A DNA stretch of 48,190 nt from Deltaproteobacteria bacterium HGW-Deltaproteobacteria-1 (GCA_002840635.1 PHBN01000002.1:1-48190), one strand, 5' to 3'; numbered from the stretch's first letter, positions 454 to 41,341 are shown. Made by a program: numbers and translations. Notes: generated by a model not told the origin, from the sequence alone.

Positions 454-808
454 GGTTTTTTCTCCTTTCTGCTATGGTTGTTTGGGATATTCAACTTTAA
501 CAGATCGAAAATACCATGTCCTCTCCTATCTTCCTTATAGTAAGCTGAAAGAGAGCCTCAGGCAATTTAGATAAGCATACCCCCTTCAGCCAGAATTCAT
601 TAATGTTGGCTTTTGTTTAAACTGGATAAATATTCCACAAATTACCTGCCGGGCTTTTGGTCTTTATTACCGTGAAATGCCCAGTGCCATAATTTCATTT
701 CATTTGATTTTAAACATTATTTTAATTTTTATTTTTCTTAAAAAGAGTATAAAGATAACAAAATATCGGAAATTACCGGCTAAGTATATTAATCGTTATG
801 GATAAAAG

Positions 809-1090
809 ATGATGAATAATATTATTTCTATCGTTGTTTCGCTTTTGACTTTAACACACGTCGGTATTCTACTTGTGATAGTAGGTACTGCGTTCCTAGC
901 TTATGCAGTAAAGGTCGAAAATAAATACACACTTTCCGCAAGAAGTAAGGAAAATAAAAAACGATTAGAAGACATTGTTAAAAGATCAGAAGATGGGTCA
1001 TACTATGAACCATCTATCGTTCGTGTCGATAAAATATTTTTTAGGTTGGGCCTTGCATTCGTGGCTTTAGGTAGCCTAATGCAATGGTAA
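809..1090 (+). CDS. small membrane protein (cassette ORF)
   Basis: 93-aa ORF with hydrophobic N- and C-terminal segments around a charged loop. AT-rich and followed by a degenerate attC. Confidence 0.5.
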   Translation: MMNNIISIVVSLLTLTHVGILLVIVGTAFLAYAVKVENKYTLSARSKENKKRLEDIVKRSEDGSYYEPSIVRVDKIFFRLGLAFVALGSLMQW

Positions 1091-1112
1091 AAATATGTTA
1101 AAAAAATAAAGA

Positions 1113-1166
1113 TATATAAAATAAATGCGGTTATTCGCTGCGCTCTGGCATTGCTTTACGTTGCTG
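1113..1166 (+). repeat. attC-like site (degenerate)
   Basis: TATAAAATAAATGCGG..TTCGCTGCGCTCTGGCATT..ACGTTGCTG. It shares the central CGCTGCGCTC loop with the sites at 7096 and 10602. The R' core is GTTGCTG at 1160-1166, and the R'' core lacks the AAC. Confidence 0.45.
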
Positions 1167-1196
1167 TGAACCAAATGAAATTGAAGAAGGCTCTAT

Positions 1197-1988
1197 ATGA
1201 AAAAAATAATAGTTTTTGTTTTATTTATCATTACATTCAATTACGTCATCTATAATCAAACAGCTTTTGCTGAGACTATTATTCATTCAGCCTTATATGG
1301 TTTCTCAATTAACATTCCGGATGATTGGTCTAAAAGGAAACCAACAAAATCATGGACATATTTAGTCTATGCAAATATTGAATCTGGCGCGAATATGAAT
1401 ATAAACGTTATAAATGCAAAGGGTCTTTCTTCAATAAAACAACCAACATTGGGACAGATTTTCAACCCATACTATGAACATGCTAGAATAATAGAAAAAG
1501 TTTATGAAACTGATTCCTCATCAAACATTGATTTTTTCAAATGCGTATATAGATGGGAAAATGGTGAATTTAGAAATCAGTATGAAGGAAAGCATAGATT
1601 ACAGTATTATGCAGTGCAATGGGTTAAAGACGAAAAACTATTTACTTTAACCTTTACAGATTCTGAAATAAATTTTCAAAATAATATTCAAAAATTTAAA
1701 AGAATAGCCAATTCCATTAAATTCGATAAGATCAGTGGTGAGGAATGGGAAGGGGGAAAAATGCTTATAGAAGAGAGAGGAAAAGTTATAGCTGCTTGTG
1801 AAAAAGGCATATTAAGTCAAGGCTATTCCTATGTTAAAGTACAAAAATATTGTAAGTGTTCTGTGGATTATATTACAGAATTAGCAAATAAATATTCTAA
1901 GGCACAGTTAAAAGCATTACAGAAAGAAAAAGGGGGAAACTTTATTGAAAAAGATGCGCTTCAAATGTGTAAGCATTATTTGGAGTGA
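1197..1988 (+). CDS. secreted protein of unknown function (cassette ORF)
   Basis: 263 aa with a signal-peptide-like N-terminus, MKKIIVFVLFIITFNYVIYNQTAFA/ET. Followed by an attC. Confidence 0.7.
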   Translation: MKKIIVFVLFIITFNYVIYNQTAFAETIIHSALYGFSINIPDDWSKRKPTKSWTYLVYANIESGANMNINVINAKGLSSIKQPTLGQIFNPYYEHARIIEKVYETDSSSNIDFFKCVYRWENGEFRNQYEGKHRLQYYAVQWVKDEKLFTLTFTDSEINFQNNIQKFKRIANSIKFDKISGEEWEGGKMLIEERGKVIAACEKGILSQGYSYVKVQKYCKCSVDYITELANKYSKAQLKALQKEKGGNFIEKDALQMCKHYLE

Positions 1989-2005
1989 AATTACTTACAT
2001 TAAAT

Positions 2006-2072
2006 CCATAACCCGTAGCTAGAGCCGATCGCAAGCCCGCTGGGCTGCTCCGGTTCAGCTTTTCGATTATGG
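2006..2072 (+). repeat. attC site (R' core mutated)
   Basis: R'' is CCATAAC at 2006-2012. The R' position reads ATTATGG at 2066-2072, so it matches the reverse complement of R'' except that G is replaced by A in the GTT triplet. Confidence 0.65.
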
Positions 2073-2081
2073 GATAAAGAA

Positions 2082-2576
2082 ATGAAATATATTTTTATAC
2101 CAATAACGATGTTCGTGTGGTTCTTGACTTCTTTTTATGGAATACATATCGCAGCTATCGGAATGGCATTTATTTTTTCACTAAGTTGGCTATGGGTAAT
2201 AATTGGGTTCCCATTCCTGATAGTACCAATTTTTTGGATTTCACATAGTATCCCTTCTCTGTTGCGTGTATTATTTATTAAGATCTACGGAGTATCCTGG
2301 TTTTGTTGCATTGTACATTCGCTCGCCGGGGTTATTGGGCTTGTCGGAATAATAATGTTTTATAGCGAAAGTCCGCCGGTACTGGTAATTGGGGATGAAT
2401 CATTTTTCATTTTAAGAGGAATGTGGAAGACCGCGCCATTCAAGACAGTATTTATTGCTATACCATTCCTGGGGATTGTAATTTCCATACTTTGGTCAAG
2501 TATTATTGCACCCATATACATTAAGCTATCTGGTGTTCAGATATCAGATATAGAAAAAGATAAACAAAACCCATAA
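2082..2576 (+). CDS. polytopic membrane protein (cassette ORF)
   Basis: 164 aa, almost entirely hydrophobic helices. The stop codon lies inside the R'' core of the following attC. Confidence 0.7.
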   Translation: MKYIFIPITMFVWFLTSFYGIHIAAIGMAFIFSLSWLWVIIGFPFLIVPIFWISHSIPSLLRVLFIKIYGVSWFCCIVHSLAGVIGLVGIIMFYSESPPVLVIGDESFFILRGMWKTAPFKTVFIAIPFLGIVISILWSSIIAPIYIKLSGVQISDIEKDKQNP

Positions 2577-2626
2577 CAAGGGCAATACACCCGATCGCTA
2601 CGCTCCGGGTGATTTTTTCGTTGGAC
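2571..2626 (+). repeat. attC site
   Basis: R'' is CCATAAC at 2571-2577. The stem is CACCCG/CGGGTG around an ATCGCTACGCTC loop. R' is GTTGGAC at 2620-2626. Confidence 0.8.
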
Positions 2627-2643
2627 GATAGAAGGAGCATAAG

Positions 2644-3420
2644 GTGCCTAAACCAGAAGTACGGGATGTGTTACTGCAGGTCATTTCGGAGTGCGCTCCC
2701 AAAAGGCCTGGAGACAGTAACCTTCAGTCGCGGAGCATCCTCACTGAAGTGCGCGACCGACTTGGTGGCGCTCGCGATCATGTTCTGGAGGAAGCGATTC
2801 TGACTGCCTTCCATGATCTGCTTCGAACCGGATACCTTGCTTGGGGATTCAACCTCGCTAACCCCGACCCTCCATTCTTTCATCTTACCGAGCAGGGCAG
2901 GAAATCACTAGCTAACTTGAGTCGCGATCCAAGCAATCCGGCCGGTTACTTGGCTTCGCTCTCTCAGGCTGTGACATTGAATTCGATTGCAGACGCCTAT
3001 CTTCGGGAGGCTCTCGCGTGCTTTGTAAACGATCTTCCGAAAGCGTCGGCTGTCATGGTCGGCGGTGCATCAGAAAGTATCGCTCTTGAACTCCGAGATG
3101 CAGTTGTTGGGAAGCTGCAGTCGATGAACAGAAACGTTCCAAGAGGTATGGATGATTGGCGTTTGAAGGTTGTGCTGGATGCCATGTATTCATTCCTTGA
3201 TCAGAACTCTGGGCAGATGAAAAAGGAGCTACGGGATTCGTTCAGGTCTTATTGGTCTGCCTTTTTGCAGCAGATCCGCACGGCTCGGAATGACGCAGGT
3301 CATCCTTCCAGCGTTGATCCGGTTACGTTCGATACAGTTCACGCATCACTTTTGATTTTCCCGGAGCTAGCCAAACTCACGTTTGACCTTCTCCAATGGA
3401 TCAATCATGAGTACAAGTAG
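2644..3420 (+). CDS. HEPN-like protein (R-x4-H motif) with an N-terminal wHTH-like region; cassette ORF
   Basis: GTG start preceded by GAAGGAG. 258 aa. The motif RNDAGH (R215-H220, nt 3286-3303) sits in a helical C-terminal half and fits the HEPN R-N-x3-H signature. The ORF is visibly more GC-rich than neighbouring cassettes. The function is inferred from this motif alone. Confidence 0.6.
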   Translation: MPKPEVRDVLLQVISECAPKRPGDSNLQSRSILTEVRDRLGGARDHVLEEAILTAFHDLLRTGYLAWGFNLANPDPPFFHLTEQGRKSLANLSRDPSNPAGYLASLSQAVTLNSIADAYLREALACFVNDLPKASAVMVGGASESIALELRDAVVGKLQSMNRNVPRGMDDWRLKVVLDAMYSFLDQNSGQMKKELRDSFRSYWSAFLQQIRTARNDAGHPSSVDPVTFDTVHASLLIFPELAKLTFDLLQWINHEYK

Positions 3421-3432
3421 CAAAGAAGAGGC

Positions 3433-3487
3433 GTCCAACATTTAGCTGCACCAGATTCGGGCGAAGGAACGGCCCTCTATGTTGAGC
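3433..3487 (+). repeat. attC site
   Basis: R'' is GTCCAAC at 3433-3439 and R' is GTTGAGC at 3481-3487. Both match the canonical consensus. The cassette start TTGGAC at 2621 is the exact reverse complement of GTCCAA. Confidence 0.85.
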
Positions 3488-3519
3488 AATTTGTTATACG
3501 CCAAGAAAGCGGAGGAATA

Positions 3520-4854
3520 ATGCCGAGAGTATTTCTCAGTTATTCACACGAAGAGCCAGAACATGATCAATGGGTCATGGATTTGGGGAAGCTGCTTCGG
3601 GAGAACGGGGTTGACGCGTACCTTGATAAGTGGGATCTGATACCGGGGCAAGATACAACCTACTTCATGGAATCTCAAATAAGAGACTCCGATTTTGTGA
3701 TTCTCATATGCACGCCTATTTATGCTGATAAATCTAATATCCCCCGTGGTGGTGTAGGTTACGAAAAGAACATTATCTCCGCAGAAATGTTACAGGCTAA
3801 CGATTTGCGCCCAAAATTCATCCCAGTTTTGAGAAGAGGAACGTTCGATAGCTCCTTGCCCACCTACCTTGGGAGCAAGTATGCCGTAGACTTTCGAGAC
3901 GATAAGGAACAACAGAATGCACTTGATGAATTACTTAGAGCCGTCTATAAACAACCTCATCCTGAGAAACCGCCTCTTGGATCCAACCCCTTTAACCAAC
4001 CCGTCACCCTAACTGTCGACTCATCAATGATTGCAGTGAAATCATCCGACCTTAAGCTTGAAGTCGTTCAGCAAGATCAAGACATTCATGTATGGGAAAA
4101 AGAAGCACGCGGACGTTTCGAGTATCTTTGTGCGAGTAGACTGAACAAAGAGAAGGTAAACCCTTTCGCTGACGGCTTTTGGCAAGCCAGCTTCGTTCTT
4201 CTGTCTAAGCCTGATATGAGTGGCCTCAACAAGTTTTTAGAACAGCTTAGGGCATCCGAAACGCACCGAACCGGGTGGGATATTGGGTGGGTACCGACTC
4301 GTTCTGGGATAGCACCATATCCATACCAAGGCGGAATCGAAGTCTGGCTAGCTGAGGATGGTGACAAGGGGCCAAGCCACTCAGATTTCTGGCGCGCCGA
4401 ACCGGTGGGCCGTTTTGCTTTGTTCAGGGGTTATCAGGAAGATGACTCTGATTTCCAACATCAACTTAACTTGAAGGAGAGAATCATCGATTTCTCTTTG
4501 ATCCTGTGGCGCATATCAGAGCTTCTTCTGTATATTGATAGCTTCGCAAAACAGATGTCAGTTGGAGATTCCATGGCAGTTCTGAAGATAGCATGGACAG
4601 CTTTGAATAACCGAAGGATTGGTTATCACAAGGCAGACTTCGATAAGATATATGAAAACTACATTTGCTGTCAGGACACGGTAGATTCAATGTATAAAAT
4701 TCTATCATGCGCTAATATTAAGAAGAATCTGATACACGATGTACATGAAATCACCTTACCACTTTTCGAAGCCTTTAACTTCTTCTCAGTATCGGAAGAA
4801 CAAATCAAAGATCATATAGCAAAGCTGTTCGATCCAGAGAAAGAGGGCGTATAA
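3520..4854 (+). CDS. TIR-domain protein with an uncharacterised ~300-aa C-terminal domain (cassette ORF)
   Basis: GGAGG lies 6 nt upstream of the ATG. The N-terminus MPRVFLSYSHEEPEHDQWVMDLGKLLRENGVDAYLDKWDLIPGQD...SDFVILICTPIY follows the typical bacterial TIR pattern F-[LI]-S-Y-S. I recognise no motif in residues ~150-444. Confidence 0.8.
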   Translation: MPRVFLSYSHEEPEHDQWVMDLGKLLRENGVDAYLDKWDLIPGQDTTYFMESQIRDSDFVILICTPIYADKSNIPRGGVGYEKNIISAEMLQANDLRPKFIPVLRRGTFDSSLPTYLGSKYAVDFRDDKEQQNALDELLRAVYKQPHPEKPPLGSNPFNQPVTLTVDSSMIAVKSSDLKLEVVQQDQDIHVWEKEARGRFEYLCASRLNKEKVNPFADGFWQASFVLLSKPDMSGLNKFLEQLRASETHRTGWDIGWVPTRSGIAPYPYQGGIEVWLAEDGDKGPSHSDFWRAEPVGRFALFRGYQEDDSDFQHQLNLKERIIDFSLILWRISELLLYIDSFAKQMSVGDSMAVLKIAWTALNNRRIGYHKADFDKIYENYICCQDTVDSMYKILSCANIKKNLIHDVHEITLPLFEAFNFFSVSEEQIKDHIAKLFDPEKEGV

Positions 4855-4905
4855 CCATGGCATCCACCGGACGGCTAAAACCGCCGGTGATGCCTGCCGT
4901 TGGCC
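4849..4905 (+). repeat. attC site
   Basis: R'' is GTATAAC at 4849-4855. The stem is GGCATC(C)ACCGG/CCGGTGATGCC with one unpaired C. R' is GTTGGCC at 4899-4905. Confidence 0.75.
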
Positions 4906-4922
4906 GCCGCGCTGCGCGCTTC

Positions 4923-5138
4923 GGCCAACGGCGGAACTAAGCTACCGCTTTTCAGTTCCTTTTTGGCGCCTGACAATCTATGCGTTTTATGATAATGCAG
5001 TGTATATAAAATAATTATTAGGCCTTGCGCGCTGATTCGCACGACGCCAACAAGTCACTGAAGTCGGTTGGCATTTCACATGCAAAGGAAGCTTCGCTTC
5101 CAGCATGTTAATGCCACCGCTTAGTTCCGCCGTTGGGC
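4923..5138 (+). repeat. composite or over-long attC-like structure (ORF-less interval)
   Basis: GGCCAAC-GGCGGAACTAAGC at 4923-4942 is the inverted repeat of GCTTAGTTCCGCC-GTTGGGC at 5119-5138. The 176-nt interior contains further hairpins. Confidence 0.45.
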
Positions 5139-5143
5139 ATACA

Positions 5144-6214
5144 ATGGTAACTAGAAAAGAACTAACTGAAAGAATAGAGAATATGAGTAGTAATTCTTAT
5201 GATGCCGTTTTCTATAATTCTTTTGTTCTGCCACGTGAAGCGTTATCAATATTAGCCTTTGTATATGATAAAATTCATTTGCCAGGTGTGCATATAAACA
5301 TTAATGGATTAGACAAAAATGAACTATTTAAACAGATTGAATCAATCAGGAAAGGTGGAATTCGTGATACAGACACTTTAGATCAATACCACGCTATGAT
5401 AACTGCATTAATTTATTCATATTGCCCATCTGTATTTCAACTTTCAAAACATGAGAGAAAAGCTTTTGGCTCACTCGAAGATGGTGCAGGAAATTTAGCC
5501 AAAGAAATTGAAGAACTTTACTTCGGTCCTCCCAAGCCAGGATTTATTCCCACAATAGCAACCGGTCATTGTGTACCTCTTCCAGGAGGTGCTTTCATAG
5601 ATGTTCCAGCAAAATGGACTTACCCAGCTAATTCATTAATTTATTCGTCGCAAGAACATTTGCCGCTTATAACCACTGATCCCACAATGCCGATTCCTGG
5701 ATTACCGTCTGAAGTAAAATCAAACGCCAAAATATTATCTACAATTTTAGCAATGGAGTGCATCAAGCTTGTTTTGCCAAATATAAAAACTATTGAACCT
5801 TGGGAAATTGAAGAAATTAAAGAAAAGACAAAAGAATATTTTGTACCGTTTAAATTGAGGATGTTGAAACTTTCAAAGGTATTGAATAGTGCCATATCTT
5901 CTAGTTCAACGACAGACGAAATAATAAGAGAAGCAAAATTTATATTTGAATCTGAAGTGGAACCAGAAATGATTGAGTTAAAAACAGCTATATCTCATTC
6001 TGGGCAACCCTGGCATAAAAGACTGATTGATTTGACAAAAGATATACCGCAGTTAGTCTTAGGATTCACTACGCTACCATCAAATATAGCAATTGCTAAT
6101 GTCCTAGCAAAGCTCGGAGTATTTTTCTCGGATATTCGAAGTGAACAATTATCAAAAGACGAGGCCAGAAAACGCGGAGGGCTATATTATCTATTAAAAC
6201 TCTCTCAAAAATAA
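5144..6214 (+). CDS. hypothetical protein (cassette ORF)
   Basis: The ORF-track start at 5105 falls inside the attC arm. The first ATG after the G|TTGGGC junction is at 5144 (MVTRKELTERI...). No recognisable motifs. Confidence 0.65.
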   Translation: MVTRKELTERIENMSSNSYDAVFYNSFVLPREALSILAFVYDKIHLPGVHININGLDKNELFKQIESIRKGGIRDTDTLDQYHAMITALIYSYCPSVFQLSKHERKAFGSLEDGAGNLAKEIEELYFGPPKPGFIPTIATGHCVPLPGGAFIDVPAKWTYPANSLIYSSQEHLPLITTDPTMPIPGLPSEVKSNAKILSTILAMECIKLVLPNIKTIEPWEIEEIKEKTKEYFVPFKLRMLKLSKVLNSAISSSSTTDEIIREAKFIFESEVEPEMIELKTAISHSGQPWHKRLIDLTKDIPQLVLGFTTLPSNIAIANVLAKLGVFFSDIRSEQLSKDEARKRGGLYYLLKLSQK

Positions 6215-6222
6215 TAAAAATT

Positions 6223-6285
6223 ACCCAACAAGACGCTTCACTGGACCCGGCAAACAGCGCCGGTCCAGTGAGCTTCTCGTTAGGC
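6223..6285 (+). repeat. attC site
   Basis: R'' is ACCCAAC at 6223-6229. The stem is GCTTCACTGGACCCGG/CCGGTCCAGTGAGC with unpaired bases. R' is GTTAGGC at 6279-6285. Confidence 0.85.
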
Positions 6286-6291
6286 AGGAAT

Positions 6292-7074
6292 ATGGAAAAC
6301 ATCGTTCCTAAAAAGGTGTTTCTTGATAACTGTATTGTCAGTATTAGTGACACTGTGCAAGGTGCCCAGAAAAGCACCAAGGTCAGCTGGGGTGGAAAAG
6401 AGCATACAATTCAGGTTTCTGGGTTTGAGGGAAAACCATTACCCAGGGACGACGAGGTCTGGAAACGAGAGCAGATTGAATGTATGCCAACCATCGGGAG
6501 ACTGGCAAGACAGAACGTTATTGCTTTATCTATATACGTGGAAATCCAGTTCGAGGGGTGGAAACGTCCTAGGTCATTTCCAGCTACCGCCATCGGAAAT
6601 GTGTTTAACGGAATAGAATTCGAATATGTAGATGCCGCTGTTGAGAGGTCATACTTTTTTCAATCTTCACTGGATGATCATATTGATAACCAAAGAATGA
6701 TTGACTTTTGCAAGTGGCTATTGAAGATCAATCCGGATATTTTAATTGAAAAAATCATGAAGGCTAGGGATTTTCCCGATTTTTTATTAATTAATTTAAG
6801 GAATGTTGAGAGATTCAGAGAGCTCTGCAAGGGGTTGTCTGAGAAGCAGTATCCAGATGCATTCCACCTCTGGACTGCTGAGGTCAATGGTGCGGATTGC
6901 TTCTTAACCATTGACAAAAAATTTATTCGGGTAATGACTGAAACAAATAAAGCAAAGATGCCTTGTCCGCCACTTTCACCGTCTCAACTGCTTGACGAAC
7001 TAGAAATACATGAAAGAGATCCTATTGAATACGTGGAGGGAGCCTTCTATGACATATTCGGGAGGCGTAGCTAA
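6292..7074 (+). CDS. putative PIN-like domain protein (cassette ORF)
   Basis: The first ATG after the cassette junction is at 6292. The N-terminal VFLDNCIV and C-terminal DAFHLWTAEVNGADCFLTIDKKF resemble the first and last acidic motifs of PIN domains. This is weak, motif-level evidence only. Confidence 0.5.
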   Translation: MENIVPKKVFLDNCIVSISDTVQGAQKSTKVSWGGKEHTIQVSGFEGKPLPRDDEVWKREQIECMPTIGRLARQNVIALSIYVEIQFEGWKRPRSFPATAIGNVFNGIEFEYVDAAVERSYFFQSSLDDHIDNQRMIDFCKWLLKINPDILIEKIMKARDFPDFLLINLRNVERFRELCKGLSEKQYPDAFHLWTAEVNGADCFLTIDKKFIRVMTETNKAKMPCPPLSPSQLLDELEIHERDPIEYVEGAFYDIFGRRS

Positions 7075-7095
7075 CATGAGTGGTATTCCGGCCTT

Positions 7096-7167
7096 GCCTA
7101 ACAATTTGCTGCACGCGGCAAAATTACTCGCTGCGCTCCTAATTTTCTGGTGAGCAAAGCGTTAGCA
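7096..7167 (+). repeat. attC site
   Basis: R'' is GCCTAAC at 7096-7102, the exact reverse complement of the junction GTTAGGC at 6279. The stem is TTTGCT(G)CAC/GTGAGCAAA with one unpaired G. R' is GTTAGCA at 7161-7167. Confidence 0.8.
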
Positions 7168-7174
7168 AAAATAT

Positions 7175-7915
7175 ATGAATAATAAATTAAAACACTGCTA
7201 TGACCAGATTCATCAGATACTTGGCAAAGATATTGAACCTTATGAGTCTGTTGAATTGGTGGAGAGATATCGCCAATATTGGAAACCAACGGGCAAAATC
7301 AGAGTCATTCTTTTGGCTGAATCACATGTATTCACAAGCGATGATGACCGAAAGATTAAAATACCTCAGTTACCCAATCTGCCTGGCTACGAAACACAAT
7401 ACGCAAAATTTGTCTATTGCATTGGCTACGGAGAAAGACTATTGACAGGAAATCCTTCACATCCTAAACGCGATGGCACACCTCAGTTTTGGAAAATATT
7501 TTATAGCTGTGACAATCTTATTCAAGAGAAGAATGATTTCCATCCGATTTTATCAAAAACAAAATATGAACAAAGAGTAGAGAATAAAATCAAACTTTTA
7601 TTGCGCCTTCAGCGGAACGGCATTTGGCTCATCGATTCAAGCATCGTCGCGCTATATAACAACGGAGAAAAACCTAATAATAACATCATTTCATTGGTTA
7701 TAAGAAAGTCATGGGATTGCTATATCCATAATGTAGTCGCAGAGGCAAATCCGGATTATGTGATTTGCGTTGGCAAAACCGTCGCAAACGTCTTAAAGCG
7801 CGACATTGAAAAGTTAGTTGGTAAACGTTGCACGGTTTTATCCCAACCAAATGCACATCTTCTTTCAGAAGAACATATGGCAAACTTTAGGCAATACAGC
7901 AGAATATGCCGCTGA
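7175..7915 (+). CDS. hypothetical protein (cassette ORF)
   Basis: 246-aa ORF starting 8 nt after the cassette junction. No motif recognised. Confidence 0.7.
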   Translation: MNNKLKHCYDQIHQILGKDIEPYESVELVERYRQYWKPTGKIRVILLAESHVFTSDDDRKIKIPQLPNLPGYETQYAKFVYCIGYGERLLTGNPSHPKRDGTPQFWKIFYSCDNLIQEKNDFHPILSKTKYEQRVENKIKLLLRLQRNGIWLIDSSIVALYNNGEKPNNNIISLVIRKSWDCYIHNVVAEANPDYVICVGKTVANVLKRDIEKLVGKRCTVLSQPNAHLLSEEHMANFRQYSRICR

Positions 7916-7926
7916 CATTAATTTAA

Positions 7927-7983
7927 TGCTAACAAATCAGTATAGCGGACTCGCTACGCTCCCCGCTGATTTCGTAGTAAACT
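7927..7983 (+). repeat. attC site (R' core non-canonical)
   Basis: R'' is TGCTAAC at 7927-7933, the exact reverse complement of the junction GTTAGCA. The stem is AATCAG..AGCGG/CCGCTGATT and the loop contains CGCTACGCTC. The R' position reads GTAAACT at 7977-7983, so the GTT is lost. Confidence 0.7.
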
Positions 7984-8001
7984 CATAAGGGAGAATTAAG
8001 A

Positions 8002-8439
8002 ATGAAATTATTTTTAAAGGCGACTCTAGTATTGCTACTATTTATTGTTTGCGGGTGTGCTACAACACCAGTCAGACATTCTGATGCGATTAAAGTCCCC
8101 CCAGATCGGGTACTTTCTTATCAAGATGTAAATAATAAAACTACGTCCGCAATTGTTATTACAAGAGATGAAGGGTACTTAGGGTCTGGTTGCTATTACG
8201 CTGTTTTTATTAATAGTATATTATCAGCACGATTCAATCCTGGAGAAACTGCAAAATTTTCTATTGAACCTGGAGAAATAATTTTAAAAGTAGGTAGGGA
8301 TCTGCTAGGGAATGGTTTATGTGGCGTCGGACAAGATGAATGGACACAAAGAGAAACAATATTGCGCGCGCATGAAACTAAATATTTTCGTTTAACGATA
8401 GATGTAAACGGTAAAACAGATATACAAAGGGCAGATTAA
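8002..8439 (+). CDS. putative lipoprotein (cassette ORF)
   Basis: 145 aa with the signal-plus-Cys segment MKLFLKATLVLLLFIVCGCATT. GGGAG lies upstream of the start. Confidence 0.7.
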   Translation: MKLFLKATLVLLLFIVCGCATTPVRHSDAIKVPPDRVLSYQDVNNKTTSAIVITRDEGYLGSGCYYAVFINSILSARFNPGETAKFSIEPGEIILKVGRDLLGNGLCGVGQDEWTQRETILRAHETKYFRLTIDVNGKTDIQRAD

Positions 8440-8518
8440 ACAAAAATATCTAAAAGAATATTTTAGATCATGATAGTCCATAGTTTGAGGGGACATTGGG
8501 ACGAACAAAAAATAAAGC

Positions 8519-8574
8519 GTTTAACAAAGGCAACACAGCCAATCGGTGCGTTCTGGGTAATATTTTCGATAAAA
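8519..8574 (+). repeat. attC site (R' core non-canonical)
   Basis: R'' is GTTTAAC at 8519-8525. The body is homologous to the attCs at 2571 and 8897. The R' position reads GATAAAA at 8568-8574. Confidence 0.6.
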
Positions 8575-8619
8575 GTAAAAAACATAGACTAAATACAATA
8601 TCTAAGAGGAAACAACGGT

Positions 8620-8853
8620 ATGCAAATTAAAAACATAATCTTAGCTATTTTCATTGTTACCGTTCTTGTAGGTTGTGCCCATTACAAGACCACCTTGATC
8701 AATGCGCAGGGAGAGAAGGTGATATGCGAGGCAAACGGAAAGAGTGGCGCCATTAGTGGCTATCATCTGCGCCAAGGATTCGAGGCCTGCATCAACGCTG
8801 CAAAAGCCCAGGGATTCAAAGAAGTATCTCCAATGAATTTAAAACCCGAATGA
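8620..8853 (+). CDS. small lipoprotein (cassette ORF)
   Basis: 77 aa with the lipobox LVGC in MQIKNIILAIFIVTVLVGCAHY. An AGAGGA ribosome-binding site lies upstream. Confidence 0.7.
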   Translation: MQIKNIILAIFIVTVLVGCAHYKTTLINAQGEKVICEANGKSGAISGYHLRQGFEACINAAKAQGFKEVSPMNLKPE

Positions 8854-8896
8854 GATAAAGGCAGGGTTCCATCTAAATTGACATATGAACAAAAAC

Positions 8897-8952
8897 TTTT
8901 AACAAAATCAATACAACCGATCCGTACGATCCGGATGAATTATTTGTTATGT
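8897..8952 (+). repeat. attC site
   Basis: R'' is TTTTAAC at 8897-8903. The body is AATCAATACAACCGATCCGTACGATCCGGATGAAT. R' is GTTATGT at 8946-8952. Confidence 0.75.
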
Positions 8953-8972
8953 GGGGAAGGTGAGAATCTAGA

Positions 8973-9749
8973 ATGAATTATTCTTCAATTATAAATCAAT
9001 TTATAGGTGCGACATGGTATTTTATACTAATCATAATTTTGGTAATTATAATAAAATCTTCTCGGTTCAAAGGCATAACGGGCGAATTCATAGTAAACAT
9101 CTTGGCAAGGATGTTTCTAGATAAGCATGTATACCATCTCATCAAAAATGTGACATTACCAACCGAAAATGGAACGACTCAAATTGATCATATTATTGTT
9201 TCAAAATATGGCGTATTCGTGGTTGAAACAAAAAATATGAAAGGGTGGATTTATGGTGACCCTGACCATCAGACGTGGACTCAAAAGATATACAAGCATT
9301 CAACTAAATTCCAAAACCCTCTTCACCAAAACTACAAGCACCTAAAAACTCTTGAATCCCTTCTTGGACTGAATGATCAGCAGGTTCATTCATTGGTTGT
9401 TTTTGTTGGAGACAGCACTTTCAAAACGGAAATGCCAGAAAATGTAACATATGGCCGCGGTTATGTTCGATTTATCAAATCAAAAATACAGCCTGTCCTC
9501 TCTGAAACAGAGGTTGATGCAATCTTAAGTAAAATCGGCGCCGGCATGTTAACGCGCTCATTTAAAACCAACAGCGAGCATGTAAAACATGTCAACCATA
9601 TCGTAAGCGAAAAGAAGAAGGAAAATACGTGCCCAAGATGCGGTAGCCCCATGGTGTTGAGAGAAACGAAAAATGGTCAAAATGCCGGAAAACAGTTTTT
9701 GGGATGTTCAAGATATCCAAAATGCAAAGGTGTTTTAAATATCACATAA
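8973..9749 (+). CDS. NERD-domain nuclease-like protein with a C-terminal topoisomerase-type C4 zinc ribbon (cassette ORF)
   Basis: It has an N-terminal TM segment and the NERD core IDHIIVSKYGVFVVETKNMKGWIYG. The C-terminus CPRCGSPMVLRETKNGQNAGKQFLGCSRYPKCKG forms the zinc ribbon. The stop codon lies inside the attC R'' core. Confidence 0.85.
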   Translation: MNYSSIINQFIGATWYFILIIILVIIIKSSRFKGITGEFIVNILARMFLDKHVYHLIKNVTLPTENGTTQIDHIIVSKYGVFVVETKNMKGWIYGDPDHQTWTQKIYKHSTKFQNPLHQNYKHLKTLESLLGLNDQQVHSLVVFVGDSTFKTEMPENVTYGRGYVRFIKSKIQPVLSETEVDAILSKIGAGMLTRSFKTNSEHVKHVNHIVSEKKKENTCPRCGSPMVLRETKNGQNAGKQFLGCSRYPKCKGVLNIT

Positions 9750-9808
9750 CCCATCGCTAAGTCTGATCGCGGTCCTGTGGGTCGCTCCGGCTTAACTTTT
9801 CGTTACAC
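9744..9808 (+). repeat. attC site
   Basis: R'' is ACATAAC at 9744-9750, the exact reverse complement of the junction GTTATGT at 8946. R' is GTTACAC at 9802-9808. Confidence 0.8.
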
Positions 9809-9872
9809 CTTTCAAATAGATACAGCAGCTTAGGACACTCAACGAAAGCAACAATTAGACAAAGTTTTTTAA

Positions 9873-10607
9873 ATGGGATGGGACAAATTGATAATTGACA
9901 CAAATTTTAATTTCTACTCCGATTCAAATGGCGGTGACCCTGACAGCACCAGTCCAACACTTCGTAGATACCATAAGATGCTATGGAGTAAACCATTGCC
10001 AAATGGCAGCCTATTTGAATTATTTGACAATAAAAATGATGCTTATTTATATCATAAATCAGGACTTGGAGAATTTTTTTTTGGTAGCGATGCCATAACA
10101 CACTTGTATAAAAATCATAAGAGGAAGCAGTGGCTTACAGAACAAATTCCCAGAGAAGTAAATGAACTTTTTGATACAGGTTCTACTATTGGAGCTTATA
10201 TTGTTTTCCCAAATAGAATTGACTGCAAGCATACAATCAATCAGGCGCGTGGAGTAAATAGTTTAATTGATGATAGATTTGACTTAACGTTAGAATGTAT
10301 TCGTCTTTTTTATCTGGGCCAAGAGAATCCTCTTTATTCCAGTTTATTGAGATATAAAGAATTCTTCGATTTGTTTAGCGATTTTATGGGCTACATCCAT
10401 TTCTTCTTATTGGATGATTTGATTGATGAAAATAGTGATATTAGATTTTATTTGCCATTTGATGGCTTCAAAACTCGTCCAACATTTTCAGATATTGGCC
10501 AATATCTATTATACAAAAAAGGAGTAATAAATTTTATTAAGTCAAGAAATAAACGAATAGAAAATTATATAAAACCACAAAAGACCGAGCATGATACCAG
10601 CACATAA
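9873..10607 (+). CDS. hypothetical protein (cassette ORF)
   Basis: 244-aa ORF whose stop lies inside the next attC R'' core. No motif I can name with confidence. Confidence 0.7.
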   Translation: MGWDKLIIDTNFNFYSDSNGGDPDSTSPTLRRYHKMLWSKPLPNGSLFELFDNKNDAYLYHKSGLGEFFFGSDAITHLYKNHKRKQWLTEQIPREVNELFDTGSTIGAYIVFPNRIDCKHTINQARGVNSLIDDRFDLTLECIRLFYLGQENPLYSSLLRYKEFFDLFSDFMGYIHFFLLDDLIDENSDIRFYLPFDGFKTRPTFSDIGQYLLYKKGVINFIKSRNKRIENYIKPQKTEHDTST

Positions 10608-10674
10608 CAAGGCGCTTCACTCGGACGGCAATTCCGCTGCGCTCCATTGCCGCCAGTGAGCTTGGTCGTAAACC
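10602..10674 (+). repeat. attC site (last recognisable; R' core non-canonical)
   Basis: R'' is ACATAAC at 10602-10608. The arms GCGCTTCACTCGGACGGCAA / TTGCCGCCAGTGAGC are close homologues of the attC at 6223. The R' position reads GTAAACC at 10668-10674. Confidence 0.7.
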
Positions 10675-11049
10675 TTTCAATTGGAAAGAAACACTTAACC
10701 AGACACAACAGTATTGCGACATTGTAGGTGGCGTCAGCAATAGGCGTCCCTATTTTCTTCTTCAGAATCATCCACAAAGTACTGGTTGTAAGGTTGAGTT
10801 TTTGGACATTGGATGCGACTTACAGGATGAAAGATGCGAATGGCTGATAACTGATTTTCCGCTTCTGCTGCTGGCCGCTGCCTTACTGTAAGAGAGTGTG
10901 TAAAATTTTTTACTGATGTTATTTCTTTATGTTGTGAAAGAAATACTTTCACAATAACCTTAATGTTTGCTTAACAAATAAGTTTTCAGTTTGGTGTTTT
11001 TTTACCAAAACAACGATGTAGTGTTCAACAGAAAAGGTGCCCCGAGTAA

Positions 11050-11095
11050 ATTCCTATATTCCTATATTTGTATAGCAATATATGGATATAGGAAT
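11050..11095. promoter_or_regulatory. operator-like repeat set: TCCTATAT twice in tandem plus one inverted copy
   Basis: ATTCCTATAT at 11050-11059 and ATATAGGAAT at 11086-11095 form a perfect 10-bp inverted repeat. TCCTATAT is tandemly repeated at 11052-11067. The set lies ~80 nt upstream of the ORF at 11173. Confidence 0.4.
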
Positions 11096-11172
11096 AACCA
11101 TTTGTCCCTGCCTGAAAAAACTGAGCCTTTTTTTAATTGAATTTTACCTGATAATAATGGATAATACAGCAA

Positions 11173-11502
11173 ATGAATAAAATTAAAGTATCCGTCATAA
11201 TGATTACTATATGGCTCGTGCTCGGGCTATATACTGCATTTGTGGCGATGTGTTATTTTAATTGGTTTGTCACGCGCATCCTAAATGTCAATAATGCAAG
11301 TTATCTGGAAATGCTTGGCATTGTCTGGCTATTTGGACTCTTTAAAGATAGGACCAAAAGTGTAGAACATAATAACAAGATCGATTATGAGAAACATCCG
11401 ACAATCTTCTGGGAACAAGTTTTCATAGGAGTGTTTGAGTTGATAGCAAATAATACCCTGATCTTTGCCATCGGTTATGGACTGCATCTCCTGATTAAAT
11501 AG
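11173..11502 (+). CDS. small membrane protein
   Basis: 109 aa with three hydrophobic helices. No attC follows it. Confidence 0.5.
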   Translation: MNKIKVSVIMITIWLVLGLYTAFVAMCYFNWFVTRILNVNNASYLEMLGIVWLFGLFKDRTKSVEHNNKIDYEKHPTIFWEQVFIGVFELIANNTLIFAIGYGLHLLIK

Positions 11503-12015
11503 CTAAATGAACTTAATGAAAACGTTGGGACAGTAGTGGAAAATCATGAAAGTTAAAGAAAAAGTGATGGCGGAGTTTCGTACAGTCCCCTTACGGGTAA
11601 TTCATGGAGCCAAGATAGGGAGAGCAGCTCTCAATAACCCGGATCTTCCGATTGAGTTCATACGGGACATACTGGTAGCCAGAAAACAAGGTGACTATAC
11701 GCCATTCAAGTTCGGTGCGGAATGAACATGGTTGACATGATACTTTAAAAAATAGCTATAAGATGTCGTTGGATGGAGTTTTCTTGACATAAGGTGTAAA
11801 GACGATAACGAGTGCAATAGCTGAAACAAACAAAACATCAGCTTCTTAGAATATACTACTACCTTTCAAGTAATCATCAAATCCAGCCACAGGCAGTCAT
11901 CGAATATTAGGTAGGTGGAAGAGATTGCTGAGATAGGACTTAATTGGACAATGTCTGTTAAGTCAAGTGTAAGTCGGGACAATTAATGCATTCCAGAGGA
12001 AATGACCACTTACCT

Positions 12016-13944: not shown

Positions 13945-14945
13945 CTGCGCAGTATTTCCGCCACGCGTCTTTTGCCTCCGTGCCTTGCGGCGTCGGATGA
14001 ATTGTGGAATGACTGTTCCAGCGATGGAATATTTAGGTTTTCATGGTCTACCAGGAAGGGATTGGACATCGTGTTGCTCAATGCGAGCTCATCGTTGTAG
14101 GCTAAGGCAAGCGCTTCTGTGGTTACGCGATCGAGATTTTTCACGTAAGCGATTTCAGCAGCTTTGCTGATCAATTTTTTTATGTACGATACTACTCCTT
14201 TTGTGGCACAGAATATCCGCAATGCAATTTCATTCGAATGCAGAATCGATGGCTGTGGAAAAAATGTTGCTTTCTCTATCATGATCAAGAACCGGAGAAA
14301 ATCGTCTCGCTCTTTCACTGGATTCCAGTTGAAGGCCTTGAGTTCACATATATTCGCAAACCTTCTCATGAGTTGGGGGTTTACCGTCAATATTGAGTTG
14401 GCATTTGGCATGCCCATCAGCACTATGGGGACCTTTGTTCGGTTTAAGACGTCTTTCAGCCAGTCGGCCGTTGACCTCAACACCCTGTCGGAGTCTCGGT
14501 CGATCAAATGCTGAAACTCGTCGAGAATAATTAGTTCGACTTTACACTCTTTTATCAGCCTGCAAAGTCGGCTGGTCATGTTGATTGTCGTCCCTCTGTC
14601 GTACAAGGGGTCGCCGAGGTCCTCAAGGAGCCTGCATGCTAGGCCCTTGATGGTTGCGTTCGACGGGATCATCGAGTAAAACACGGGAACGGTGGTTCCG
14701 TCTTTGGAGACCACCCTCGCGTATTGCCCCACGTAATGGTTAGCTATGGTGGTCTTGCCATACCCTGTATTGCCTATGAGCAGCATGCATTTCGGTTCGG
14801 TCGTGAGTTTCGACCTTTCATGGCATTCCCTTATCATGGCTATTGCCTGTTTGAAGGATGGAGAGAGGACTATTGTGTTTTCTATGTGTCTTATCTTTTT
14901 GTTGATCGACATCCCTGTTTCTTCCACTGCCTGGTATTGTCGCAT
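13941..14945 (-). CDS. tnsC: TnsC/TniB-like AAA+ ATPase (334 aa, short TniB-sized form)
   Basis: Walker A is LLIGNTGYGKTT and Walker B is LIILDEFQHL. AAGGAGGG lies upstream of the ATG at 14945. Confidence 0.9.
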   Translation of the reverse strand: MRQYQAVEETGMSINKKIRHIENTIVLSPSFKQAIAMIRECHERSKLTTEPKCMLLIGNTGYGKTTIANHYVGQYARVVSKDGTTVPVFYSMIPSNATIKGLACRLLEDLGDPLYDRGTTINMTSRLCRLIKECKVELIILDEFQHLIDRDSDRVLRSTADWLKDVLNRTKVPIVLMGMPNANSILTVNPQLMRRFANICELKAFNWNPVKERDDFLRFLIMIEKATFFPQPSILHSNEIALRIFCATKGVVSYIKKLISKAAEIAYVKNLDRVTTEALALAYNDELALSNTMSNPFLVDHENLNIPSLEQSFHNSSDAARHGGKRRVAEILRR

Positions 14946-14963
14946 CTCATACTCCCTCCTTTC

Positions 14964-17183: not shown

Positions 17184-17833
17184 ATCTTTTCCTCCCCACA
17201 TTTCATTGAATTGAGCAAACAAGTCACTATAGCGGTGTTGTTAATTTCTTTGCGGAGGTCCAGTGACAATATCCCATGTCGGAGCAGTGCGAAAACCTCT
17301 TGCTTCAAAAAACCCCGTGAGCCCATCAAGCCGACGATTTCACCAAAGGGCATGTTTTCTCTGTTCGATAATATGTCGTTTAGGCTAAGCAGGTGGCTGT
17401 CCGAAATCGGAATCATGGAATATTTCTGCAGTAGTTTCACGTTGTCGAGAAGGGGCTGTTCCCTGATCATGCTGTCGGTAACGACCATGAATTCATAACC
17501 TTCGCGGTATATGACCGGAGCGACGCGTTGAAACAATTGACGGCAATCATCACTTTTTGCGGTTTTGTCGTCCTTGACTTCCACAACCTGGACCCGGTTT
17601 CCAACCCTTGTAACCAGGAAGTCCGGGGTGTATCGATGGATTTTACTGTCCCTGTCGTCATGGTACCTTACGCAAACTGATTGTTCTTCAAAAGATATGA
17701 CCTCCGGATCGAATTCCAACAAATATATGTAATCGCGCTCGATTTGGGATTCCCACATCACCATCCTGCCCATTTTTTGGCTGGGGAACTTCCCGATCAC
17801 TTTCCTGCCACCGTTTGTAATTTTTCTAATCAT
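17180..17833 (-). CDS. tnsA: TnsA endonuclease
   Basis: WESQIERDYIYLLEFDPEVISFEEQ...YTPDFLVTR...VQVVEVKDD matches the TnsA N-terminal restriction-endonuclease-like fold with its E/D/ExK residues. Confidence 0.85.
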   Translation of the reverse strand: MIRKITNGGRKVIGKFPSQKMGRMVMWESQIERDYIYLLEFDPEVISFEEQSVCVRYHDDRDSKIHRYTPDFLVTRVGNRVQVVEVKDDKTAKSDDCRQLFQRVAPVIYREGYEFMVVTDSMIREQPLLDNVKLLQKYSMIPISDSHLLSLNDILSNRENMPFGEIVGLMGSRGFLKQEVFALLRHGILSLDLRKEINNTAIVTCLLNSMKCGEEKI

Positions 17834-17857
17834 GGCGATCTTTCAATACTTATTATA

Positions 17858-17903
17858 CAAGTGATAAAAACTTATATTATAATATGAATTATGTCAAGTG
17901 ATA
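17858..17903. promoter_or_regulatory. two direct CAAGTGATA copies in the tnsA/xre divergent intergenic region
   Basis: CAAGTGATA occurs at 17858-17866 and 17895-17903, within the 108-bp gap between the divergent tnsA and XRE-type genes. Confidence 0.3.
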
Positions 17904-17941
17904 TTTGTTGACCACTCTTATTTTATAAGTTAGGAGTTCTT

Positions 17942-18829
17942 ATGGAAAATTTACCGTTGTTTTTGAAAATGGTGCGGGACGCGCAAGGAATCAGCCAATC
18001 TGAGCTGTCTGAAGATCTCGGAGTCAGCCAATCAGCGATTGCCCAGTTCGAGAAAATGAAAGCGACTCTCTCAATGGGACGCATGATAAGAATGGCGCCG
18101 ATCCTGAATGTGAATCCCAACTATTTGCAAACGGGGATTGGCAATCCCTTCAGGCAAACTATTAAACAGAAAACGATCAAGATGTTCTTCCCCGAAGATC
18201 CTCTAGGACGGATGGATACAACTCTCGTAAGGCTCATAATAGATGCCAACAAGCAGGCGGAATTTTTCTTCTTGAGGCCGGGGTATATTGACTCTCTCTC
18301 GATAGCAAAAGAGGGTGGAACTGTAAAGAAGGCGCTCAGCCAATGGCAGAGACAGCGGGCGAAAAACACCATGGTATGTGCCTTGTTCGTTTGTGACGGC
18401 GATGACAATACCTTCCTCTTCAAGAGGAAGAATAACCGCCTTTTCGACAATGAGGAACTTATGGTGTATTTTTTACGGAGAACAGGAGAAATTGATTATA
18501 AATGTTTTACTCTTGATACTATTAATTTGAGTTTGCCTGAATGCATTGAAATAATCAAGTGGCATGACTCACCGTGCGAAAAATTATTTGAGGAAATATT
18601 ATACTTGAAATCTCACAATGATCGTACATTCGTTACACGACTTTTGAATGACCTTTGGTCTCGAAAGGAGTTCATGAAAGATAGCAGAAACTATGAAATG
18701 GCCATGGAAATGATTAGAGGAATGCACGATGATAGCCTACGTAGGTCGTTGTCGGTTTTGGTGCCCCGCATGGCTAAGGTTGTAGAAGAAACATTTGTTT
18801 CGAACAATGATGACGAAGAAAAAGACTGA
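17942..18829 (+). CDS. XRE-family HTH protein with a ~220-aa uncharacterised C-terminal domain
   Basis: The N-terminal sequence LKMVRDAQGISQSELSEDLGVSQSAIAQFEKMK is an HTH_3-like pattern. A GGAG ribosome-binding site is present. The gene is divergent from tnsA. Confidence 0.75.
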   Translation: MENLPLFLKMVRDAQGISQSELSEDLGVSQSAIAQFEKMKATLSMGRMIRMAPILNVNPNYLQTGIGNPFRQTIKQKTIKMFFPEDPLGRMDTTLVRLIIDANKQAEFFFLRPGYIDSLSIAKEGGTVKKALSQWQRQRAKNTMVCALFVCDGDDNTFLFKRKNNRLFDNEELMVYFLRRTGEIDYKCFTLDTINLSLPECIEIIKWHDSPCEKLFEEILYLKSHNDRTFVTRLLNDLWSRKEFMKDSRNYEMAMEMIRGMHDDSLRRSLSVLVPRMAKVVEETFVSNNDDEEKD

Positions 18830-19255
18830 ATCTGTCTATATTATCAGTTCGGCGCACCGAACTAACAATTTGATAATGAATACAACTGTGTAGCTTGATT
18901 GTAATGTTTTTTATATCCATCGCTGCTGGTATTGGTGGGAGAAGATAGATGAGCTTGATTTCGCTTACAAATACCAGAGTCGTCTTTATGCCGTGGAGGT
19001 CAAATCCTGAATTTACCCCGAAAAATGTACCAAGTTCAAATTAAGTCTTTGCTCCTGTTGAAGTCAAATTTTTTCGACCTCAAAACCTGAACAATTTGTA
19101 AACCAACAAATTAACGGTTATTTGTCAATATATCGTTAATATAGAAATGAAGATGAGATAATTAACGGCAAATGTTTCTCATGGGAGGCCTGTTTTGGAA
19201 ATCCTCTTCGGGAAAAAGGGTTGGTATCTTCGGCAGAGTGGGATGACAGGGGGAT

Positions 19256-19306
19256 CGAAATACCAAATACCGAAATTTCGATACCAAAATTTCGATACCG
19301 AAAAAC
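19256..19306. repeat. short tandem repeats, 14-nt unit ATACC[GA]AAATTTCG
   Basis: ATACCGAAATTTCG at 19267-19280 and ATACCAAAATTTCG at 19281-19294 are flanked by partial units on both sides. Confidence 0.8.
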
Positions 19307-19396
19307 AGTATCTGTATAAAGATTTGTTGTTAATAAGAATCCGTGAATTATCTCGTGACCGCTACATGCAAATTTTGATTGTTAAAAGAGGGGAAT

Positions 19397-19427
19397 GGTT
19401 TGAGGTCGCAAATTGCGACCTCAAACC
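19397..19427. repeat. perfect 31-nt palindrome (15-bp arms, 1-nt centre)
   Basis: GGTTTGAGGTCGCAA-A-TTGCGACCTCAAACC. A near-copy of one arm, CGACCTCAAAACC, occurs at 19075-19087. Confidence 0.95.
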
Positions 19428-19833
19428 TTGGAAAGAAAATTATGAAGTTATCATAATTATATTTTGATAATCTGTTTATAATTGGGAAGTAAATTATATC
19501 ATTTCTGAACAGGTAAAACGAACCGGTCGTTAAAAATATATTACAACCGCAAATGTTTACCACATCCCGATGATATAATGTCTTTTGAGTTTTCCCCCTT
19601 TGAATATTCCTGAAGTTGTACCGACAAAAGCTCCGCCCTGTCCATACTTTTCCAAACGATTGATCTAAAAAGGTTTTTCTATCATAGTAACAATACCTAT
19701 CATATTATCGGATAATTTGTATAGTATAGTTAGTCCTGGTTTATTAAGTCCTTGTCGAATTTTCTGGACATATACAATCATTATCATTATAATAACGTCA
19801 TTATAATGACAATATCAATGGGAGGCTAAATGT

Positions 19834-20115: not shown

Positions 20116-20160
20116 GAAAAATTATCAGAAAAAGCGGCATTAAAATCATGGAGTGAGATT

Positions 20161-20421: not shown

Positions 20422-20435
20422 CAGCTTCTTTTAAA

Positions 20436-20891: not shown

Positions 20892-20919
20892 GCTCAACCT
20901 CCAGCGGTATTGTGCGCGC

Positions 20920-41288: not shown

Positions 41289-41341
41289 TTACATAGCCGA
41301 TTCATCTTGTCAGAATCCGCTTGACTTTTTTTCACATATAT

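Follow-up and report, generated by a model that had tools for sequence, protein, structure and literature searches.

The described systems closest to the locus examined here are the Tn7-like transposons, among them Tn7 itself and the type I-F3 CRISPR-associated transposons (CASTs), and the integrase-less remains of integrons. Clusters of attC sites that lack an integron integrase are termed CALINs in the definition used by IntegronFinder. In a survey of 6,549 Tn7-like transposons, ∼10% were found to hold an intact or partial integron, with 2,334 cassettes dominated by resistance genes such as qacE and dfrA1; defence systems were abundant in these elements and internal insertion sequence (IS) elements were frequent (Benler et al. 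2021, PMC8649781). Here we analyse a stretch of 48,190 nt (the window), which is the entire contig C390 of the metagenome-assembled genome (MAG) of Deltaproteobacteria bacterium HGW-Deltaproteobacteria-1 (labelled G000), and which carries a tnsABC-tniQ operon to the right of an array of integron-type cassettes. Our analysis makes it very likely that the first 41,293 positions of the window make up the right-hand part (41.3 kb) of one Tn7-like transposon of 42,810 bp, inserted between an SPFH/Band-7 gene and a TetR-family gene, and that the array is cargo of this element, moved passively with it. From left to right, the element consists of its left end, ∼430 bp, an IS110 element, a leader, an array of 11-12 cassettes, a spacer, tniQ-tnsC-tnsB-tnsA, an XRE gene, defence and toxin-antitoxin cargo, and its right end (Table 1).

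The element resembles Tn7 of Escherichia coli in having TnsA, TnsB, TnsC and a TnsD-type selector, a 5-bp target duplication, TGT...ACA termini, and ∼22-bp TnsB sites that are spaced at the left end and contiguous at the right. As in Tn7, whose right end lies beside the gene that is recognised, a candidate target gene adjoins the right end, and the cassettes lie by the left end, reading inward and converging on the tns genes. The two differ in that Tn7 has tnsE, a class 2 integron that keeps intI2, a tnsA that adjoins the right end, a TnsC of 555 aa and an attachment site at glmS, whereas here no tnsE, intI or attI was seen, tnsA is 23.5 kb from the right end, TnsC has 334 aa and the insertion lies in an SPFH–TetR intergenic region. 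Thus none of the features that mark Tn7 proper with its class 2 integron (intI2 with attI, tnsE, and tnsA beside the right end) was found.

The closest solved homologues of TnsA, TnsB and TnsC belong to the type I-F3 CASTs (Tn6677/VchCAST and PseCAST) and their non-CRISPR relatives. Unlike the CASTs, this element has no cas matches among its scanned open reading frames (ORFs) and no CRISPR array, and has instead a 642-aa TnsD-like selector with a helix-turn-helix (HTH) domain. With CALINs it shares at least 11 co-oriented attC sites at cassette-sized spacing and no intI in 42.8 kb; it differs from them in that the array is embedded in an intact-looking transposon, and in that other contigs of the genome bear a partial intI and further arrays of this attC type. 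The elements surveyed by Benler et al. are similar in their partial integrons, defence cargo and internal IS elements, whereas here the recognisable cassettes are of defence type (bSEFIR/TIR and NERD), the host is an anaerobic syntroph, and cargo lies on both sides of the tns genes.

Tn7-like transposons with integrons are already documented, and this element adds a clean, fully delimited example, not a new principle or mechanism. Its standout features are a defence-flavoured integrase-less array, a selector-only I-F3-like tns module, and cargo on both sides of that module. It is a case of a Tn7-family transposon, in an anaerobic syntroph not yet in culture, that carries 10 kb of sedentary-type cassettes without an integrase of its own, beside a 22-kb defence island. 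This lends support to the idea that site-specific transposons carry cassette arrays and defence genes jointly, far outside clinical bacteria. It also provides defined ends, a candidate attachment site and a TnsD-like selector for reconstitution.

The MAG derives from groundwater metagenomes of 2016 and comprises 558 contigs, with a completeness of 83%. Named relatives of an ABC-transporter gene in the flank place the host in Smithella (Smithellaceae, Syntrophales). On the chromosomal side, to the right of the element, lie TetR and ABC-transporter genes, and the G+C content goes up at 41.3 kb. Throughout, C labels denote contigs of this MAG unless prefixed, G labels related genomes, and L labels related elements or loci in other assemblies; Logan contigs are short assembled pieces of public runs, here X1, X2 and X3.

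Ends, target duplication and empty site

An earlier note on the window, made from its sequence alone, proposed that the array is cargo of the Tn7-like element, to be checked by locating both ends and a 5-bp duplication, and held that a left end between 10.7 and 12.0 kb would instead place the array outside. Both ends were located, with TAGCC on each side and with the corresponding sites in sister Smithella empty. There is no left end at 10.7-12.0 kb; the true one lies beyond the array, ∼2.3 kb to the left of the first cassette ORF and with a matching TAGCC, so that the array is inside the element.

At the right end, the ∼20-22-bp repeat AATTTCACTTTATGYGCAAA gives three matches, against 0.02 expected by chance, and is found in the window only at 41225-41287. 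The terminus reads ...TGTGCAAACTTACA, followed directly by TAGCC GATTC.... We were led to these repeats by the related element L010 (TnsB 79% identical), which matched window 41193-41290 by blastn. L010 carries the same repeats as a four-site end, which terminates in GTTACA 5.8 kb 3' of tniQ and adjoins an inverted relic of a right end, and the same four-site end is present near the tniQ side of L034 (TnsB 84% identical). Since both relatives carry these repeats on the tniQ side, the repeats are TnsB sites of this transposase family.

A scan of the whole MAG placed the left end on the 2.2-kb contig C157, 3' of an SPFH/Band-7 gene, where the sequence reads ...CCGTT TAGCC and continues directly as TGTAACTTTGCGCATAAAGTGAAATT.... 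The end starts with TGTAAC at C157:1587 and its inverted set of TnsB sites spans 1593-1721, with four spaced sites at 1593, ∼1649, 1671 and 1702, of which the one at ∼1649 is weaker and was read by eye against L010. Each terminus is present exactly once in the MAG. As is characteristic of the Tn7 family, the ends are asymmetric, are bounded by TGT...ACA and contain several inverted ∼20-22-bp TnsB sites.

The insertion is accompanied by both a 5-bp duplication and an empty site in relatives. When joined, the flanks align uninterrupted to five sister species (G062, 91%; G005, 90%; G051, G057 and G041; range 77-91%). The pentamer occurs once in the junction alignment, as TGGCC in G062, TAGAG in G005 and TACAG in G051, with G057 and G041 gapped at this position. 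Among 116 Smithellaceae species genomes, the termini were found only in G000 and G002, one per orientation per genome. In the sister species G002 they bound a decayed 5.3-kb element (L025; G002:C288:9244-14567) at the identical SPFH–TetR site, which has the same termini with one TnsB site per end and contains an IS3-family element and two unknown ORFs, and no tns genes. Two occupants of the same site among the 116 genomes are only a hint of site specificity.

No cluster of TnsB sites was present at 10.7-12.0 kb or at 18.8-19.1 kb, and a repeat search (18-mers with up to 4 mismatches) gave no convincing inverted repeats between the XRE side and the DNA to the left of tniQ. A candidate left end at 11905-11990 was rejected, as this is a dispersed repeat without TnsB sites, where relatives diverge from the window at differing positions; the end motif that was guessed first was dropped, its frequency being at chance level. 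In run X3, the Logan contigs branch at the right-end junction, and the first ∼150 bp of the flank (window 41295-41440) have a depth of ∼1,700-1,830, compared with 1,245. No loose ends were reported there. The extra flank depth could stem from a coexisting strain in which the site is empty or differs.

Contiguity of the element

The left end and the window are on different contigs of the MAG. Three contigs of other assemblies (L041, L042 and L043, of 48.8, 46.5 and 44.1 kb), retrieved via the second cassette protein, join C157, 916 bp of IS110 interior and C390 1-11988 at 100% identity, which makes the whole one element of 42,810 bp. The same joins are given at 100% identity by at least four separate assemblies (the MAG, two ENA MEGAHIT assemblies and one from JGI), and a second JGI contig, of 80.7 kb, also contains the right-hand part. 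Both end junctions are spanned by Logan contigs, which in X1 and X2 show no alternative branches. The depth is equal at the left junction, in the array, in an 18.5-kb right-hand piece that reaches the flank, and in the chromosomal flank (∼20x in X1/X2 and ∼1,200-1,460x in X3).

The gap between the two MAG contigs falls within the IS110-family element, which sits ∼430 bp inside the left end and the left part of which is at C157:2017-2187. The MAG contig is broken at the window start because this element is a multi-copy repeat: the IS110 depth, at the window start and at the C157 end, is ∼4x that of the neighbouring sequence, and other copies diverge at position 549. In G001, G041 and the complete genome G008, the sequences in C157 and in the window make up a single IS110-family element, of which they are the halves, correctly ordered and oriented and ∼900 bp apart; L041 and L042 encode the entire 426-aa transposase. 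None of the Logan contigs bridges the four-copy IS110, and exact-overlap scaffolding of the MAG gave no partner for the ends of C157, C390 or C225.

The transposition module

The tnsA, tnsB, tnsC and tniQ genes that had been read on the minus strand at 12.0-17.8 kb were all matched by Pfam. All four are open, the catalytic motifs of TnsB (EIDHT, VVDNGKEF and ERYF) and of TnsA (E, PDF and EVK) are intact, and the ends and duplication are undamaged. The module thus has the heteromeric TnsA + TnsB transposase of the Tn7 family, with TnsC and a TniQ/TnsD selector in the same operon. Among solved homologues, TnsB is best matched by those of PseCAST (308 bits) and Tn6677 (287 bits), with only 100 bits to Tn7 TnsB. 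Similarly, TnsC scores 157 bits to VchTnsC of Tn6677 as against 36 bits to Tn7's own TnsC, TnsA matches PseTnsA, and the N-terminal TniQ domain matches CAST TniQ (PDB sequences). In the TnsD-like architecture already published, the TniQ core is extended by a long C-terminal region that contains HTH domains (PMC10293859). On these comparisons, the module fits a type I-F3-CAST-like clade with a TnsD-like target selector, the known proteins of Tn7 being remote. The earlier note had regarded the module as atypical, on account of a TniB-sized ATPase and a single long TniQ-like protein with HTH-like segments. Since the 334-aa TnsC is close in size to the 330-aa VchTnsC and the TniQ architecture is one already described, the module is not atypical.

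The absence of tnsE and of any cas or CRISPR component, also proposed from the sequence, agrees with our searches. The cas, tnsE and integron-integrase families gave no match among the large ORFs, small ORFs and the DNA past 47.6 kb being outside the scan. No ORF follows tniQ in the operon, and hence there is no tnsE-like gene in that position. The window contains no CRISPR array; its sole tandem repeats, the TnsB sites and a 14-nt repeat, are not CRISPR-like. Neither the tniQ-cas8/5-cas7-cas6 operon nor the internal CRISPR array that characterise a type I-F3 CAST was found. Given a 642-aa TnsD-like HTH selector without cas matches or a CRISPR array, targeting is presumably protein-guided.

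The XRE gene is probably the regulator of the element, because it accompanies the tns module in all five of the related elements whose contigs reach that side (L008, L009, L010, L012 and L032). A search for relatives with TnsB as the single protein query found none. The close TnsB relatives, which are 79-93% identical, were fetched with their contexts, and by blastn only ∼11.98-19.0 kb of the window is common to all of them. The breakpoints of homology with the window differ by relative, on both sides, and the cargo of the relatives on the tnsA/XRE side is also variable, including restriction–modification (R-M) genes, AIPR and, in L010, two attC sites. Among 40 related genomes searched, TnsB was matched only in G019, at 30% identity.

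The Tn7 geometry that had been attributed to the locus holds in part. The cassettes do lie by the left end and point inward, towards the oppositely oriented tns genes, but tnsA is not outermost at the right end, from which it is separated by 23,460 bp with the XRE gene and the defence cargo between.

The cassette array

The plus-strand cassettes noticed earlier at 0.8-10.7 kb form an attC array. Behind each plus-strand ORF comes an imperfect palindrome with an invariant TAAC box (R'') at one edge and a CGTT-type box (R') at the other. RNAalifold, applied to a MAFFT alignment of the attC sites, returned no consensus structure, because of bulged bases. In a stem drawn by hand, 66.7% of the cells are paired, compared with 29-46% in slid controls, and a single shuffle in 500 attained the covariation score of this stem. 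When trained on 11 sites, a covariance model recovered each of them in the window, between 2003 and 10676 on the plus strand; beyond these, the window gave just one weak match (E 0.54), a minus-strand echo of a trained site. Outside its training set, the model picked up 18 sites on six further contigs of the genome, those on any one contig sharing an orientation. The matches in the window and on the other contigs together show that the array is real and that its attC type is the host's own. Sequences resembling attC that were seen by eye near the left end of L010 and after a 361-aa ORF of L008 were not confirmed by the unfiltered covariance model.

The integrase model TIGR02249 matches nothing in the element; in the MAG it matches only contigs C225, C494 and C460, the best match being a partial intI at the end of C225 (209 bits, C-terminal 136 aa). 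As there is no intI within the 42.8 kb, the array is a CALIN, with more than the minimum of two attC sites and no integrase nearby, and not a complete integron of intI, attI, Pc and attC. The suggested parallel with the class 2 integron of Tn7, and with it an intI between the left end and the array, does not hold, since that interval has room only for the ∼430 bp, the IS110 copy and the 259-bp leader, and contains no intI or attI. No resistance-family match was obtained among the scanned cassettes, and most cassettes other than the bSEFIR/TIR and NERD ones match no library.

Further arrays of the same attC type are present in the host, on contigs C211, C511, C152, C302, C198, C375 and C26. Overlaps of 99 bp at the contig ends link C211 to the reverse complement of C511, and this to C152. 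Together with the partial intI at the end of C225 (C91-C225), these arrays indicate a fragmented sedentary chromosomal integron.

Proposed mechanism and alternative explanations

From established Tn7 biology, TnsA and TnsB would be expected to excise the element at its TGT...ACA termini, with TnsC coupling them to the TnsD-like TniQ. The C-terminal HTH region of TniQ is predicted to recognise a sequence in the TetR promoter or gene region that adjoins the right end, the candidate being the conserved TTGACT...TTAACCATCTGGTTAA stretch at 15-65 bp from that end. Insertion by this cut-and-paste route would yield the 5-bp duplication, and the entire cassette bank would travel as passive cargo. Since the attC type of the array is the host's own, and the genome has a partial intI on another contig, the host IntI probably loaded the cassettes in trans, and exchange is probably still possible.

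Some observations weigh against this account. The element with this array was found at one site only, so that movement of the array was not observed. The bridging contigs are 100% identical to the MAG and probably come from the same groundwater population, which makes them independent assemblies but not independent biology. The same-site occupants in G000 and G002 could share one ancestral insertion, rather than reflecting independent targeting. Transposition, target recognition and the action of IntI are predictions. Finally, the position of the tns operon, in the middle of the element and away from the right end, is not usual in Tn7-like elements and might point to a composite history. In such a history, the left and right ends would come from an older element that had lost its own tns genes, the XRE-tnsABC-tniQ block (∼11.5-19.1 kb) would be a younger module that was inserted or recombined into it, and the array would be cargo of the outer shell only. 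Besides the position of the module, the restriction of the conserved block to ∼11.98-19.0 kb, with variable DNA on both sides, is in keeping with this, as is the 75-bp dispersed repeat 3' of tniQ, where the junction in L012 points to recombination. We nevertheless consider a composite origin quite unlikely: no second set of terminal repeats brackets the module, the breakpoints vary between relatives with no one discrete end, L010 and L034 have this left-end type linked to tniQ, and the genome has only one left and one right terminus. Either way, the array would still be between functional-looking ends with a cognate transposase.

It is very improbable that the array is outside the transposon, as a sedentary part of the chromosome that happens to adjoin the element, which would put the true left end, or else a rearrangement junction, at 10.7-12.0 kb. 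While the host does have other arrays of this attC type and a partial intI on other contigs, and the L012 junction documents recombination at the 11911-11987 repeat, there are no TnsB sites at 10.7-12.0 kb, three assemblies physically connect the array to a left end that lies past it and has the matching TAGCC, sister species have the SPFH and TetR flanks side by side, and the depth is uniform. A chimera of assembly or binning, in which repeats would have joined an array, a tns module and a defence island of separate genomic origin, might be suspected in an incomplete MAG of so many contigs with multi-copy IS110 and repeated attC and leader sequences. It is scarcely credible when at least four assemblies give the same joins at 100% identity, the 80.7-kb JGI contig holds the right-hand part, Logan contigs cross both end junctions without alternative branches in X1 and X2, and the depths are equal.

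The reading of a single Tn7-like transposon with the array as its cargo could be extended to the Smithella lineage, whose Tn7-like elements would then export the sedentary integron of their host. Promoter-bearing leaders such as that at 550-808, which is shared with L008, would serve as integrase-independent landing or expression platforms; chromosomal-type cassettes, many of them for defence, would be loaded in trans and moved between genomes as a block; and the architecture of a central tns module flanked by cargo to left and right would be specific to the clade. We regard this extension as doubtful.

Other features of the element

The coordinates of all features are collected in Table 1.

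Table 1. Features of the window (positions in the 48,190-nt contig unless prefixed)
Feature	Position	Strand	Basis or remark
IS110-family insertion, right-hand 549 bp of 1,636 bp	1-549	-	Pfam DEDD_Tnp_IS110; transposase N-terminal 151 aa at 1-453
Non-coding leader before first cassette ORF	550-808	+	blastn 91% identity to L008 leader preceding a different ORF
Integron-type cassette array, no integrase (CALIN)	809-10676	+	attC palindromes, covariance model
Degenerate attC site	1112-1168	+	
attC sites 1-6	2003-2074, 2568-2629, 3430-3502, 4846-4908, 6220-6288, 7093-7170	+	
attC sites 7-11	7924-7985, 8516-8577, 8894-8955, 9741-9811, 10599-10676	+	
Cassette with weak DUF4145 match	2644-3420	+	
Cassette bSEFIR/TIR	3520-4854	+	
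Cassette NERD + Topo zinc ribbon	8973-9749	+	
Cassette DUF6994	9873-10607	+	
Spacer cargo between array and tniQ	10677-12015	+	no TnsB sites
109-aa ORF in spacer	11173-11502	+	
59-aa ParD-like ORF in spacer	11546-11725	+	
75-bp dispersed repeat in spacer, just 3' of tniQ	11911-11987		
tniQ/tnsD-like target selector, 642 aa	12016-13944	-	Pfam TniQ residues 13-144, HTH_17 528-581; PDB matches CAST TniQ, TnsD
tnsC AAA+ regulator, 334 aa	13941-14945	-	Pfam TniB/AAA_22; 157 bits vs VchTnsC (Tn6677, 330 aa)
tnsB DDE transposase, 752 aa	14964-17222	-	Pfam Mu-transposase_C (Mu-transpos_C)/rve; PDB homologues
tnsA endonuclease, 217 aa	17180-17833	-	Pfam Tn7_TnsA-like_N; PDB homologues; motifs E..PDF..EVK
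XRE-family HTH gene, 295 aa	17942-18829	+	Pfam; divergent from tnsA
Second cargo region, XRE gene to right end, 22.4 kb	18830-41224	.	
RHH/NikA-like + Xre_MbcA_ParS_C toxin-antitoxin-like genes	19834-21297		
HTH gene	22002-22343		
Type I R-M hsdR, hsdM, hsdS	23614-29574		
HTH-M78 gene	30191-31372		
Split Dsr1: SIR2 part (329 aa) + 946-aa part	32309-33298 + 33295-36135		
Orphan ORF, 1576 aa	36180-40910	+	adjoins right end, 3' of split Dsr1
Right end	41225-41293	+	three contiguous TnsB repeats 41225-41244, 41247-41266, 41268-41287, then terminal ...CTTACA
5-bp target-site duplication TAGCC	41294-41298	.	second copy C157:1582-1586, directly ahead of left end TGTAAC
Chromosomal flank, probable attachment region	41299-42164	+	TTGACT... 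and TTAACCATCTGGTTAA promoter/operator sequences conserved; TetR-family gene 41367-42164; empty-site alignment

At least two copies of the IS110 element (in C157 and at C198:10623-10714; ∼4 copies by depth) are at the identical position of a repeated sequence, ...CTTGACAGCAAGYGTNAAGACGATCAYGAATCAYGA..., which in C198 and L008 lies directly 3' of an attC-type GTTAGRC core. As these copies sit at the same position, IS110 seems to target a conserved cassette leader. The uninterrupted L008 version of the leader follows a GTTAGAC core and a TTGACA box, and the leader may supply a promoter.

In the spacer between the array and tniQ, window 11514-12015 is also found in L008. The 11911-11987 repeat has copies on C220, C364, C371 and C279, and a weaker, intergenic copy in the core-like contig C382. 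In L012, the tns module meets C382-homologous DNA exactly at this repeat, which suggests that recombination took place there.

In the second cargo region, the 1576-aa ORF had no match in Pfam, NCBIfam, PADLOC or the PDB sequences. Just past the XRE gene, window 18990-19430 is found in L012 and not in L008 or L010, and is therefore cargo, belonging neither to the core module nor to an end. This stretch is non-coding and dense in repeats, with a 31-nt perfect palindrome at 19397-19427, copies of the palindrome's arm, and tandem repeats of the 14-nt sequence ATACCGAAATTTCG.

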